DNA of 63,920 nucleotides from Patescibacteria group bacterium UBA1396 (GCA_002305195.1 DBQK01000009.1:61575-125494), one strand, 5' to 3'; shown: positions 4,077-51,674, counted from the stretch's first letter. Notes: generated by a model not told the origin, from the sequence alone. Program-made: numbers and translations.

Positions 4077-7001
4077 TTATTCTTCATCCTCATCATCAAG
4101 TTCACGCTTAGTCACGGTGGCGGCCACGATTTTTTCTTGGACGGGCATACGCATCAAGATGACACCTTGGGTTGGTCGTTTGAGAACAGGAATGTTTTTG
4201 ATTGGGAGTTTGATCACTTGAGCTTCTTGAGTGGTTAAAATCAGATCTTCGTGATCTTGAGTGACCAATAAGGCGGCCGAGATAGGACCGGTTCTAGTGG
4301 TTACTTCCGATACTTTAACGCCCTGCCCTGCCCTTTTTTGGGTAGGATATTCATCTAAGTCGGTGCGCTTACCCATACCTCTTTGCGTAATAATTAATAA
4401 CTGGCGGAAGAAGCGCCGTCGGCCGTCGGCAGGCTTTTCCGCGACCCGCGGAAAAGCCTGCCCGCCAACCACGTAATCATCTTTTTTGAGTTTAATTCCT
4501 TGAACACCCTGGGTATCGCGAGCGCTAATTTTAACTTCTTCTTCAGGAAATCTAATTGATTTGCCTGATCGAGTGACCATTAAAACATCGTCCTGCCCAG
4601 AGGTTAATTTAGTAAATACCACGGTATCATTGGGTTTAAGAACGATTGCAATTATGCCGTTGGAGCGAATATTTTCAAACTCACTCACCGCGGTTTTTTT
4701 GACCCTACCCTCTTTGGTAGCAAACAAAATATAACTCTTTTTAACATCTAGTCCTTTGGGGACCACTAAAATATTTTGAATTATTTCTTCACTTTCCAGG
4801 TTAATGATATTCACCAAAGCTGTCCCTTTAGATTGTCGACTTCCCTCTGGCAGCTCATAAACTTTACTAGCAAAAACGCGACCTTTATTGGTAAATAACA
4901 ACAATGTGTCGTGATTTCGGCAGGAAATAATTTCCTTGATAGGATCATCTTCCTTGGTTTTCATTCCACTTACACCTTTGCCGCCACGTCGCTGTACGCG
5001 ATAAGCATCAGGGTTCATGCGCTTGATATAACCACCAGTAGTGTAAGCCACGATAGTTGGATCGTTGGGAACCAAGTCCTCTTCGTTAAACTCGCCGATT
5101 TTACCTTTGTTAAGTTTTGTTCGTCGATCATCGCCATATTGATCAACAAGTTGTTTGATCTCATCCACAATTACTTGCAAGATTTTTTGTGGGTCGGTCA
5201 AAATAGTGATGATTTCGTCAATTCTAAGTTTGATTTGCTTGTATTCATCCTCGATCTTTTGTCTTTCTAGCGCTGCTAGTTTACGCAGTTGCATATCAAG
5301 AATAGCAATAGCCTGAGCTTCGGATAATTTAAATCTTTCCATCAATCTGGTTTTGGCTACTTCACTATCGGCTGATTTGCGAATAGTTTCGATAACATCA
5401 TCTAAATTTGCCAAAGCGATTAAGAGACCTTCCAAAATATGCGCCCGCTCGCGTAAACCTTTAAGTTCAAACTGGAATCGCCTAACTGTGACTAGCTGCC
5501 GATGGCTGACAAACTCCATAATTACACGGCGAATATTCATTAGTTGTGGTACGCCGTCAGAGTTTAATGCCACCATATTCATCGAGAAATTACTTTGCAA
5601 TTCTGTCTGTTTAAAGAGGTTGTTTAGAATAGATTTCGGTCTGGCACCACGCTTTAATTCCACCACTACGCTTAAACCTTGACGGTCGGAATCGTCACGA
5701 ATATTACTGATTCCGTCGAGTTTTTTATTACGAACCAAATCGGCAATTTTGGCGATTAATTTTGCCTTATTAACTTGATAAGGCAGCTCAGTAATTTCGA
5801 TAATATTACCTTTACCTTCTTGAACGATCTCGGCTTTAGCCCGCATTGTGATGCGTCCACGTCCGGTAGCATAGGCATCTTTGATGGCGTTCCAGTCGTA
5901 AATAATGCCACCTGTTGGGAAATCTGGGCCATTAATATGTTCCAGGATATCCTCAACCGTGATATCACTAGTAAATTCACCGGCTAAATCCTGAGGATTA
6001 GCTAACACGGGATCAAATTTTGTTTGACCAGCAGACTTATCTTTTTTGGTGGTTGATTCTTCAGTTATGGCTGATTCGGATTCCGGGCCGGTAGTTTCCG
6101 GAGTAGTTGCTCTGCCTTTATTAATGGTTTCGGTAATGGCGGCCGCTACTTCTTTTAAATTGTGAGGTGGAATTTTGGTCGCCATACCTACTGCAATACC
6201 TTCAGCGCCCATTAACAGAAGATTAGGTAGGCGTGCTGGCAAGACTTGAGGTTCTTGTCTTGAACCGTCGAAATTATCAATAAAGTCAACGGTATTTTTT
6301 TCAATATCGGCTAATAATTCCTCGGTAATTCTAGCCATTCTGGCTTCGGTATACCGCATGGCGGCCGGTGAATCACCATCGATTGAACCAAAGTTGCCCT
6401 GCCCATCCACTAGTGGATAACGCATCGAAAAGTCTTGAGCCAATCTGACTAAGGCATCGTAAACCGCGCTATCACCGTGAGGGTGATATTTACCAAGCAC
6501 CTCACCAACCACTGTGGCTGATTTTTTATATGAGCTATTCCAACGCAAGCCCATAGAGTGCATGGCATAAAGAATTCTCCGATGCACCGGTTTTAATCCG
6601 TCTCTAACGTCAGGTAGAGCCCGAGCCACAATAACGCTCATTGCGTAGTCCAGGTAGGACTTGCTCATTTCATCGATAATTGGTTTTCGGATTACCAAGC
6701 CGTGGTCTGTTTTTTCTGTTTCGTAAGTTTCGCCCTCTTCGCTTGTGAAGGGTGAATTATCCACTTCGATTTCGGCTGTTTCGGAAGTAGTTGGTTGATC
6801 CATTAAGTCATCACCGCCGTTTTCTTGACCTAAATCAACAACCTCTGAAGTATTATCTTGTGATTTAACTGCGGTTTCACGAGCTGTATCAACCACTGCC
6901 TCTGGTTTTTTAGCAGAGGTTTGGTTTTTAACCTCGACTGCCTCATCGGCTGACTTATCCGATTTAGTAGCTGCTGGTGATTTTTTCTTATCAAAAGCCA
7001 T
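4077..7001 (-). CDS. gyrA: DNA gyrase subunit A
   Basis: [17 protein letters not shown] catalytic Tyr, GyrA-box QRRGGKG, beta-pinwheel repeats, acidic tail. Confidence 0.98.
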
Positions 7002-7027
7002 TTTTTATTTCTGTTTTTTTGGCTGAT

Positions 7028-7570
7028 TTATTTAGCCAAACTTTCATTAATAAGCGCGACTGCCTCATCGGCACCTTTAATATCTTTTAATTTGACCCAC
7101 TTGCCTTCTTCTAAATCCTTATAGTGTTCAAAGAAATGCCTCATTCGGCCAATTCTTATCTCTGGAATATCGTCAACAGAATTCCACTGACCACAAATCA
7201 TATCGATTTTAGGCAAAGGTACTGCCAAAATTTTGTGATCAATACCGGCCTCATCTTCCATTTCTAGCAGGCCGATTACTTTGCATTTAATGTGACAATT
7301 CGGTGTTAAAGCCTGGCTGGCAAATACCAAAACATCTAAAGCGTCTCCATCTTGACCGTGCGTACCCTCAATTAAGCCATAATTTTCGGGATATCCCATT
7401 GTAGTTGGCATAATACGATCGATCATAAACTTGCCGTTTTCCTCATCTAGCTCATATTTAATGTTTGAGCCCTGAGGGATTTCAATATGGACAACTAAGT
7501 TTTGTGGATCAAGTGGCATATTACTCCTTATTGGTTTTGTTATTAATTTTTTATTTGTCCTTTTAAACAT
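7028..7570 (-). CDS. ppa: Family I inorganic pyrophosphatase
   Basis: [36 protein letters not shown] motifs; true start may be the Met at 7519. Confidence 0.95.
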
Positions 7571-50108: not shown

Positions 50109-50189
50109 AAGTTAGGCTTCTTAATTATCAATATTATGAAACACTTGAGTATAGCATTGTCAGTTAGCTATACTCTCTGAAGGTTTAAG

Positions 50190-51674
50190 ATGTTTAAATC
50201 AAATTTTTTTTCTATACTCTGGTCCTGGCTGGTGGGTTTTTGCCAGCAGTATAAAGTGCGGCTGGCAGTATTTTTTCTCTTCTCGTTAAGTCTTTTTTTT
50301 TGGTTCAGACTATATCGAATAACTACATCAATTCAGTTCTATAATGATATTGGTCGTGACTTCTGGGAGCTTTTAAACTGGTACCAAACAGGCAAGCCTC
50401 CTTTGTTGGGTCCACAAACCAGCGCCCTACCCTTCAATCAAAGTGCAATTTATTTCTACTTACTTTTTCCTGGATATGTATTAAGTGGTCAATCGGCTTA
50501 CTCCACTATTTACACTGGATTGTTTGTCTACGTTTTGAGTTTTTTAATTGGTTGGCGCTGGCTTAAAAACAACAAGGACAAATGGATTTTGGGGCTTATT
50601 TTTCTTTTCACGACTGTTCACCCTCAAGTTGTAATTCAGAATCGATATGTTTGGAATCCAACTTTTGTTCTGCCTAGCTTAGTAGCGGCAGTTTTTATTT
50701 GGCTATCGCTTATTGATAGGTGGTCATCTAAGAAACTGCTGGCCTGGTCTTTTTTTAGTGCTTTAGCAACTGCCTTTTCTTATTCAGCGGCTCCCTTGGT
50801 TTTATCGATGTTGGCTTTAACTCCCTGGCTCAAAATAATTAGTTGGAAAAAGTTTTTTAAATATCAAATACCCTTTTTCATTTTGTCATTGGTCGCTGTT
50901 AATTTGCCAACCATTGTCTTTGAGATTCGACACCAGTTTTTACTTACTAAGATGTTGCTGTTTCAGCCAAAAACCGAGCATTTAGGTACTGAGCTAACTA
51001 CAAAAATTTCCGCTTTAGCAAATTATGTATTTAGCACTTCCTCTTGGTTGGCAGTTGTTGTTTTGGTCTTCTTACTTGTTTTAGCAATTAGAGCATATTG
51101 TCAGTATCGATCAAATCGCCAATATAATTTTGCAAAAAAAGTTTTTGTAATTCTGGCTTTAACAGTTATTTCTTTAACCCTTACTTTTTTAGCACCGGTG
51201 CCGATTCACCCTCATTACGTCTTTGGTGCCTTAACTGTACTTTTGTTTTTAGTAGCACTTTTACCTAAGAAAGTGGGTGTAATTATTTTAATTATTGCTT
51301 CTGTTTATTGGTTACAACCAAAATTTACTGATCAATATTTTGAACCAGTCGGTAGGTCACCCTCTGATTTGCTGGCTTGTTATACAGATTTTTGTGATAA
51401 ATATCAGCAACCTATTTATGTTAGTGTGCAATCGAGTTTACACCCCTATCATAATGGGCCTGAGCATCGTTACTTTATGAAATTTTCTGGTTGTGATGTC
51501 AAGGAGATTGAAAAGTTTGAGCCAGCCGAACTGATGGCGGTTGTTTTGGAAGAGGGAGACTACCAACACGGTTCAACTAGTTATTATGAACTATCTTTAT
51601 TTGGTGAGTCTATTGAACTGGAGCGGTACACTTGTTTACCTGAAGTTTTGGAAGTAGTAGTTTTGTCCAAGTAA
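50190..51674 (+). CDS. ArnT/PMT-like GT-C membrane glycosyltransferase
   Basis: YNDIGRD loop after TM1, PLLGP, WNP; many TM segments. Confidence 0.75.
   Translation: MFKSNFFSILWSWLVGFCQQYKVRLAVFFLFSLSLFFWFRLYRITTSIQFYNDIGRDFWELLNWYQTGKPPLLGPQTSALPFNQSAIYFYLLFPGYVLSGQSAYSTIYTGLFVYVLSFLIGWRWLKNNKDKWILGLIFLFTTVHPQVVIQNRYVWNPTFVLPSLVAAVFIWLSLIDRWSSKKLLAWSFFSALATAFSYSAAPLVLSMLALTPWLKIISWKKFFKYQIPFFILSLVAVNLPTIVFEIRHQFLLTKMLLFQPKTEHLGTELTTKISALANYVFSTSSWLAVVVLVFLLVLAIRAYCQYRSNRQYNFAKKVFVILALTVISLTLTFLAPVPIHPHYVFGALTVLLFLVALLPKKVGVIILIIASVYWLQPKFTDQYFEPVGRSPSDLLACYTDFCDKYQQPIYVSVQSSLHPYHNGPEHRYFMKFSGCDVKEIEKFEPAELMAVVLEEGDYQHGSTSYYELSLFGESIELERYTCLPEVLEVVVLSK

Follow-up and report, generated by a model that had tools for sequence, protein, structure and literature searches.

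Polar octamers converging on a dif-like site in a Patescibacteria bacterium: a probable counterpart of KOPS with a shifted word

A stretch of 63,920 nucleotides from Patescibacteria group bacterium UBA1396 (GCA_002305195.1 DBQK01000009.1:61575-125494; hereafter the window, which is C5:61575-125494 of our genome G000) carries a dif-like site, AAGTCGCAAAA-TGTATA-TTGTGCGACAT (11-6-11; 2452-2479, no strand assigned), read in the sequence itself, and eight copies of the octamer GGGNAGGG that all point toward it. The octamer is identical to the FtsK orienting polar sequence (KOPS), also called FtsK recognition sequence (FRS), of Escherichia coli, Vibrio cholerae and Pseudomonas aeruginosa, which is read by the gamma domain of FtsK and also converges on dif. 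Such words converging on dif are textbook knowledge in Proteobacteria, and GGGNAGGG was reportedly described as KOPS in 2005 by Bigot and by Levy. We found that the polarity of the octamer reverses at the dif candidate, that the same arrangement recurs around dif in related genomes, and that GGGNAGGG is one member of a polar family of words, roughly GGGNAGGGNA. Judging from sequence comparison, these words quite probably constitute an FtsK-orienting system, the counterpart of KOPS in the Candidate Phyla Radiation (CPR). The source genome, a member of CPR/Patescibacteria, is about 0.9 Mb long with 40% GC; its assembly comprises 666 kb in 12 contigs and is 73% complete. Whole-genome counts are those of this draft with its unordered contigs. 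Counts are written as plus/minus strand or as toward dif/away from dif.

A pattern search located GGGNAGGG in the window at exactly the eight positions listed in the preliminary description, all on the minus strand and all directed toward dif, with zero copies on the plus strand:

4321-4328, minus strand: GGGCAGGG, on the sense strand of gyrA
4326-4333, minus strand: GGGCAGGG, overlapping the copy at 4321, on the sense strand of gyrA
4703-4710, minus strand: GGGTAGGG, on the sense strand of gyrA
6397-6404, minus strand: GGGCAGGG, in the gyrA codons for VDGQGNFG
8165-8172, minus strand: GGGTAGGG, on the sense strand of gyrB
29189-29196, minus strand: GGGAAGGG, antisense to the plus-strand gene 28130-29224
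33062-33069, minus strand: GGGTAGGG, on the sense strand of the minus-strand gene 32061-33905
50425-50432, minus strand: GGGTAGGG, antisense to the plus-strand gene 50190-51674

The five copies that had been placed within 6 kb of dif lie 1.9-5.7 kb from it, four of them in gyrA and one in gyrB. The rough expectation of about one copy per strand was also fair, since shuffles preserving protein and codons gave 0.9 (plus) and 1.4 (minus) on the window arm; dinucleotide shuffles of the window gave a mean of 3.9 copies over both strands. The site at 6397 is the sole one of the window found at the orthologous position in both relatives compared. The three gyrA copies at 4321-4710 look recently written, because none of them is kept in these two relatives. 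The overlapping pair at 4321-4333 reads GGGCAGGGCAGGG, that is, two GGGNA units followed by GGG, and encodes RAGQG in gyrA.

A flip of polarity at about position 2465 had been predicted, and the prediction could be tested because C5 runs 61 kb further left of the window. The reversal was found: GGGNAGGG on C5 counts 6/1 (plus/minus) to the left of dif and 0/8 to the right. The hexamer GGGNAG behaves in the same way (56/12 left, 14/53 right) and its change point, at 2039-3396, brackets dif. The octamers strongly corroborate the dif call for which they had been offered as independent support. This change point precedes the switch in gene orientation (4025/4077), since the first minus-strand words sit inside the plus-strand xer gene.

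The preliminary description also named codon usage as a possible source of the excess. We shuffled the genes internally in two ways, by exchanging synonymous codons (protein and codon usage kept) and by permuting codon order, with 300 genomes each. Neither type reproduced the count or the polarity: the minus-strand count on the window arm reached 8 in 0 of 300 shuffles, and the polarity score of C5, observed at 13, was 1.4 +/- 2.2 with a maximum of 8 in the 300 shuffles that preserve protein and codons. Over the draft genome there are 41 copies of GGGNAGGG against 21-23 expected from codon shuffles (1.8x), of which 22 are sense, 12 antisense and 7 intergenic. An effect of gene strand was considered as well and rejected, as the orientation of RGNAGGG tracks the region and not the gene: on the left arm it counts 14/2 in plus-strand genes, 11/1 in minus-strand genes and 4/0 in intergenic DNA, and on the right arm 2/9, 2/17 and 1/3 respectively. 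GC skew goes with gene orientation in the source genome, and on the toward-dif strand of the window arm it amounts to -0.001. The polarity of GGGNAGGG on C5 is explained neither by codon usage nor by gene strand or GC skew.

Six further genomes of the order were compared: G058 (same genus) and G046 (same family, f1), each through its dif-bearing contig; G047 and G035 (family f19), through dif +/- 100 kb; and two complete genomes, G002 (family f3, 1.05 Mb) and G055 (36% GC), the latter standing alone for family f14. In G046, GGGNAGGG counts 10/0 left of dif and 1/16 right, or 26/1 toward/away over the contig. In G058 it counts 3/0 left and 0/14 right (first 120 kb), and over the whole contig 23 copies point toward dif and 1 away. 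In G047 it counts 25/0 up to 3.3 kb before dif and occupies the minus strand from 2 kb after it. The orientation of the word family inverts within about 0.6-5 kb of dif in G046, G058, G047, G002, G035 and G055. The aligned DNA of the relatives is about 70% identical to C5, and only 1-2 of the 15 C5 sites are orthologous; therefore the pattern has been rebuilt independently in each genome and not simply inherited, and pseudo-replication through shared ancestry was rejected on this ground.

The six arms of the three dif regions of family f1 (G000 C5, G046 C1 and G058 C2) were pooled. There GGGNAGGG counts 57/2 (p = 6e-15 against chance), versus 779/252 for composition-matched exact octamers (Fisher p = 4e-5). 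The three right arms of the family have no G excess (toward-strand GC skew -0.001 to -0.023), and it counts 38/1 on them. When 47,961 octamer pairs with one degenerate position were ranked without bias, GGGNAGGG came 2nd in this family, and among exact octamers GGGCAGGG is 1st and GGGTAGGG 4th.

For the prediction of KOPS we took the criteria set out by Nolivos et al. (PMC3384302): a skew of at least 90% toward dif and at least 1 copy per 40 kb in the dif region, together with genome-wide over-representation (Markov order 2) and skew (Markov order 1). The values for GGGNAGGG in the three regions are:

G000 C5: 14 copies on the toward strand vs 1.5 expected (Markov order 2); skew 0.93 (14/15); Markov order 1 p = 8e-3; 1 per 8.4 kb
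G046 C1: 26 copies on the toward strand vs 6.3 expected (Markov order 2); skew 0.96; Markov order 1 p = 9e-6; 1 per 8.1 kb
G058 C2: 23 copies on the toward strand vs 2.8 expected (Markov order 2); skew 0.96; Markov order 1 p = 3e-6; 1 per 10.2 kb

The skew expected over the three regions is 0.52-0.69 with Markov orders 1-3. Thus, in the dif regions of family f1, GGGNAGGG shows the skew (at least 90%), the density and the inversion at dif of a KOPS. For comparison, Table 1 of the same paper gives a skew in the dif region of 1.0 for E. coli and 0.92 for V. cholerae (0.93-0.96 here), and the densities listed there are 1 per 11.6 kb and 1 per 15.9 kb respectively (1 per 8-10 kb here; PMC3384302). 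Abundance and bias both climb toward dif in family f1, where GGGNAGGG counts 44/0 within 60 kb of dif (1 per 7-8 kb), 14/2 at 60-110 kb and 5/1 at 110-215 kb (1 per 17 kb). Arm B of G002 has GNAGGGGA at 15/0 close to dif and at 10/4 in its most distant part. In this sense the words resemble the architecture imparting sequences (AIMS) of Hendrickson and Lawrence, octamers that become more abundant and more strand-biased toward the terminus (PMC5993296). However, AIMS are defined by the leading strand, which here is unreadable from GC skew, while the words follow dif.

The top-ranked word of family f1 is not GGGNAGGG itself but GNAGGGGA, with 59/1 (66/1 with the full G058 contig). Both words have GNAGGG in common, with a shift of two bases between them, and they coincide at only 14 sites (GGGNAGGGGA, 14/0). 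In the family GGGNAGGG has a polarity of its own, its sites without an overlapping AGGGGA counting 44/3. The combined form GGGNAGGGNA counts 37/0 toward/away. The GNAGGG core alone is 71% polar, and this rises to 84-87% with a G two bases upstream or with G/A in two downstream positions. We estimate that the recognised core would be GNAGGG with G-rich flanks, GNAGGGGA being the putative order-wide optimum.

Beyond the family, the shifted word holds best. In G002 the GC skew stays positive over the whole chromosome, at +0.23 and +0.11 for the two arms (same strand), and GNAGGGGA counts 49/3 and 47/10 (82%) on its two arms, with AGGGGAG at 58/2 and 63/13. Counted cumulatively, GNRGGGGA (GNAGGGGA plus GNGGGGGA) has its maximum at 347254-348865, which encloses the perfect dif at 348672 beside xer, and the three top words polar toward dif on both arms are AGGGGANT, ANAGGGGA and GNAGGGGA. 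This genome had looked like a counter-example, with 100 consecutive plus-strand sites of GGGNAGGG running through a perfect dif, but it was rejected as such: the one-sided GC skew carries GGGNAGGG along, and GNAGGGGA flips exactly there. G047 and G035 have one arm with a toward-strand GC skew of +0.43 and another with -0.2 to -0.3; here GNAGGGGA takes ranks 1 and 2 respectively, and GGGNAGGG ranks 180 and 3491. On the anti-skew arms of these two genomes GGGNAGGG gives weak counts (5/1 in G047, 6/5 in G035), above the backgrounds of 39% and 21%. In G055, GNAGGGGA counts 22/1 in two zones on either side of dif (up to about 250 kb). Among the frequent words of this last genome the most polar are GAGNAGAG (83/21), AGAGNAGA (133/47) and GAGTAGA (89/23), which keep the KOPS skeleton G-R-G-N-A-G-R-G with A replacing G. 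The comparison hints that the guide word may drift with the GC content of the genome.

Over four families of the order, GNAGGGGA is the best and most consistent word. GGGNAGGG is not the exclusive conserved polar unit of the lineage, being outranked by GNAGGGGA in family f1, G047 and G035, while GNAGGGGA also holds in G002. The earlier proposal that this lineage uses the same motif as E. coli therefore stands in part: there is a polar signal converging on dif, with the properties of KOPS in the genus and family, but the best word across the order is the shifted GNAGGGGA, and GGGNAGGG fails in G002. It seems about evenly balanced whether GGGNAGGG itself is read in the genus and family of the window; otherwise it would be polar as a near-cognate of the true word.

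Other words of the polar class in the window are the following, all directed toward dif:

1004-1010, plus strand: AGGGGAG, left of dif
1979-1986, plus strand: GTAGGGGA, of the GNAGGGGA family, about 470 bp left of dif and the nearest left-hand guide word
16745-16753, minus strand: GAAGGGGAG, in which GNAGGGGA and AGGGGAG overlap
30832-30839, minus strand: GAAGGGGA
47639-47646, minus strand: GGAGGGGA

In addition, GNAGGGNA counts 2/0 (plus/minus) in the window to the left of dif and 0/23 to the right.

The presumed reader of the words is the gamma domain of FtsK, a role suggested by homology. Both FtsK_SpoIIIE and FtsK_gamma domains were present in every one of the relatives of the order (60 of 60), the two congeners included. 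The FtsK of a congener has 717 residues, and its gamma domain aligns with those of E. coli (2J5P) and P. aeruginosa (2VE8/2VE9, 2VE9 being the gamma-KOPS complex). The recognition helix GYNRAAR is identical in the congener, E. coli and P. aeruginosa, with one conservative change of E to D; in E. coli numbering (our own), N1296 and R1300 are retained and E1303 is replaced by D. Mutation of these three positions reportedly renders the FtsK of E. coli blind to KOPS. By homology with E. coli, P. aeruginosa, Bacillus subtilis and Lactococcus lactis, a hexamer of FtsK at the division septum would load on DNA via its C-terminal gamma winged-helix domains, and these would read the G-rich word in one orientation only, so that the motor would pump DNA until dif (2452-2479) is reached. 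There, the neighbouring Xer recombinase (3048-4025) would resolve chromosome dimers.

Several observations weigh against an FtsK-orienting role of these words. The presence of ftsK was to be checked, and the gene was not found in the source assembly (73% complete); a tblastx search with the ftsK loci and flanks of both congeners gave no match in the source genome either. This fits with a locus falling in the missing 27% of the genome; an FtsK with a gamma domain is present in all 60 relatives. The genome-wide count of 41 copies equals the expectation from dinucleotide shuffles (extrapolated), and on the other contigs the co-orientation of GGGNAGGG with an independent polar word is 17/7 (p = 0.06). 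In family f1 the composition-matched octamers already show a polarity of about 76%, and GGGNAGGG is the extreme of a polar G-rich class and not an isolated signal. In G002 it does not flip at dif and goes with the G-rich strand, and on the anti-skew arm of that genome it counts 22/51 (30%) versus 773/1895 (29%) for octamers of the same composition. Finally, it reaches only 6/5 on the anti-skew arm of G035 and is rare in G055 (11/3).

One alternative is that the words are a real, selected polar signal read by another machine, such as a Chi-like helicase-nuclease, SMC or some other translocase. Chi sites are likewise short, G-rich and strand-polar, and the Chi-like octamer GTTGGTGG counts 11/0 (toward/away) on C5 and 31/17 over the remaining contigs, a polarity that may be related to coding (the word is GGTGG-rich) or may represent another polar signal. 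Open reading frames of about 1000 residues with weak AddB-like similarity also occur in 17 of 26 relatives. However, RecC was not found in any of these 26 genomes, and the best match to AddB (TIGR02773) among them reaches at most 46 bits against a curated cut-off of 903.7. Moreover, the flip lies at dif in seven genomes, to within about 1 kb (0.6-5 kb for the word family in the six relatives), and not at the GC-skew turnover, where the direction of the fork changes, the words have GNAGGG in common with experimentally proven KOPS, and the recognition helix of gamma is conserved. We give another reader a small chance.

Another possibility is that no protein reads the words, and that GGGNAGGG is polar merely because it is G-rich, as part of a generic replication-linked asymmetry between strands. 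All the other arrangements of six G, one A and one N are indeed polar on C5, summing to 141/28 beside 14/1 for GGGNAGGG, the polarity of same-composition octamers in family f1 has been given above, GGGNAGGG largely goes with the G-rich strand in G002 and G035, and an unusual G/C disparity between strands has been published for UBA1400 (PMC7143001). Against this, GGGNAGGG holds its 38/1 on the f1 arms whose toward-strand skew is zero or below, and it exceeds the composition-matched words of the family (p = 4e-5). Likewise, GNAGGGGA keeps its direction toward dif on arms where the GC skew is -0.11 to -0.31, being top-ranked on both arms, and the flip of the words in G055 is at dif, 250 kb away from the turnover of GC skew. 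The anti-skew arms largely refute generic asymmetry, which we regard as improbable.

GC skew keeps its sign across dif in G000 (contigs C5, C2 and C7), G046:C1, G058:C2, G002, G047, G035 and G055. The only change at dif in G000, G046 and G058 is a fall of the plus-strand skew from about +0.06 to about 0, and the dif of G002, G047 and G035 is flanked on either side by DNA in which the same strand is G-rich (in G002 over the whole chromosome), with skews of up to 0.43. In G055, dnaA and the skew minimum are at 61 kb and the turnover is at about 490 kb, diametrically opposite, while dif and the word flip are at 741.5 kb; GC skew and word polarity disagree in the 250-kb zone between turnover and dif. 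The arms from origin to dif are unequal, 680 and 172 kb in G055 and 388 and 662 kb in G002.

Kadnikov et al. (2020) described a monotonic cumulative GC skew in complete genomes of the order UBA1400 (Microgenomatia) and put forward as explanations unidirectional replication or an origin beside the terminus (PMC7143001). FtsK is not mentioned in that paper, nor do a dif site or polar words appear in its passages on skew (PMC7143001). The skew anomaly is therefore already known, and the two-armed layout around dif brought out by the guide words appears to be new with respect to those passages. We tentatively suggest, without wishing to lean on it, that this order of Microgenomatia, which displays the anomaly of UBA1400, may keep the classical two-armed layout from origin to dif, written in GNAGGGGA/GGGNAGGG words and in gene orientation that converge on the dif beside xer, while its GC skew is one-sided or turns far from dif; replication termination would then be uncoupled from dif, if GC skew reports the direction of the fork. 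Were this so, FtsK guide words would be the only reliable marker of the functional terminus, and the question left by Kadnikov et al. would have an answer, with origin (dnaA) and dif not adjacent in G002, the one such genome in which both have been located (388 and 662 kb apart along the two arms). The order would also provide a natural experiment in which selection on KOPS and mutational strand bias can be told apart, and a two-base shift of the word with an almost unchanged gamma helix would imply that specificity is set outside the helix.

A coding origin of the octamers, as strings of Gly, Arg and Gln codons (GQG, GRV) in conserved minus-strand genes such as gyrA and gyrB, is very improbable. 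Although gyrA and gyrB carry five of the eight window copies on their sense strands, sense copies prevail over antisense and intergenic ones in the draft genome (22 vs 12 and 7) and GC skew follows gene orientation, neither codon shuffle reproduces count or polarity in 300 trials each, and antisense and intergenic copies hold the orientation of their region. In agreement, only one of the four gyrA copies is conserved in relatives; therefore the protein sequence did not impose these copies, which were written at synonymous positions. That a rare octamer should have clustered in this window by chance, with eight sites only and 4 of 100 dinucleotide shuffles reaching a total of at least 8, has a negligible probability, as all eight sites are on one strand with the opposite orientation across dif and the replication in G058, G046 and G047 at non-orthologous sites (pooled 57/2, p = 6e-15) refutes it.

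Considered as a probable KOPS-type system, the CPR words show likenesses to and differences from those known in other bacteria. With the proteobacterial systems they have in common the octamer, its convergence on dif and the helix GYNRAAR, in which the equivalent of E. coli E1303 is D. Unlike in Proteobacteria, the shifted GNAGGGGA is as polar as GGGNAGGG or more so and is conserved over the order, in a distant family GGGNAGGG does not hold, the dif site, with its near-symmetric arms, adjoins its own xer gene, and polarity is decoupled from GC skew. The SpoIIIE recognition sequence (SRS) of B. subtilis, GAGAAGGG (GAGNAGGG), used by SpoIIIE/SftA, is also a G-rich octamer, with NAGGG in common with the CPR word, and GAGNAGGG is polar here too (14/0 on C5, 44/8 pooled). 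We liken the A-richer words of G055, GAGNAGAG and AGAGNAGA, to this SRS. However, GAGNAGGG is not top-ranked in family f1 and there is no sporulation context. In L. lactis, the atypical KOPS GAAGAAG together with the single-recombinase system XerS/difSL constitutes a precedent for a lineage-specific change of word with FtsK gamma and for a dif beside its own recombinase gene, as here (PMC3384302, PMC2965235). The CPR word differs from the lactococcal one in being near the proteobacterial word (GNAGGG core), and GAAGAAG is weakly polar here (15/8 on the right arm).

In the literature searched, no paper contained the three terms KOPS, FtsK and Patescibacteria together. If the words do orient FtsK, KOPS-guided segregation would extend to deeply branching, ultra-small and probably symbiotic bacteria. 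The words that point toward dif against GC skew provide unusually clean evidence for selection on a dif-directed function, as opposed to a by-product of replication bias, and they bear on the puzzle of one-sided GC skew published for UBA1400 (PMC7143001). The wider interest of the system lies in the two-base shift of the optimal word and in a polarity that holds against GC skew. On the practical side, GNAGGGGA/GGGNAGGG can serve as a compass in fragmented CPR bins where GC skew is unreliable, by which contigs can be ordered and oriented, dif located and misassemblies flagged.

The dif candidate sits inside an intergenic region of 1.1 kb, and the core GTCGCAnAA-N6-TTnTGCGAC occurs in one copy per genome in 12 of 12 relatives tested. 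The genes next to it are:

3048-4025, plus strand: Xer-type tyrosine recombinase gene adjoining dif (Pfam Phage_integrase, 4.8e-45, plus an N-terminal SAM-like domain)
4077-9548, minus strand: gyrA (4077-7001), a pyrophosphatase gene (7028-7570) and gyrB (7563-9548), by Pfam matches

In G002 the xer ortholog is about 480 bp from the perfect dif. An Rfam scan of the window gave no match.

The same region contains two perfect DnaA-box 9-mers, at 2058-2066 (TGTGGATAA) and 3033-3041 (TTATCCACA). It was considered as an origin on account of these boxes and of gyrB/gyrA close by, and this was rejected, since the polar words converge on it and do not diverge; moreover, dnaA is on another contig, and in the complete relatives dnaA sits where the words diverge. 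Perfect boxes are rare, with 9 in the 666-kb source genome and 11 in the 1.05-Mb G002, and they cluster within about 600 bp or less of dif and the xer promoter in three of five genomes examined: besides the source genome, they are found at -171, +360 and +433 bp from dif in G002 and at -404 bp in G058:C2. No DnaA boxes were found near dif in G046 and G055. A possible explanation may be the control of xer by DnaA, or a DnaA-titrating locus at the terminus.

Two further sequences resembling dif half-sites, ATGTCGCAGAA and ATGTCGCACAA, lie at about 2972-2986 and 3014-3028, between dif and the start of xer (3048). Their position suggests that Xer may bind its own promoter, that is, autoregulation. 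Finally, a second tyrosine recombinase gene is present outside the window at G000:C7:124548-125030, in an open frame of 290 codons (Phage_integrase, 7.9e-32), which is relevant to whether one or two recombinases act in this dif system.

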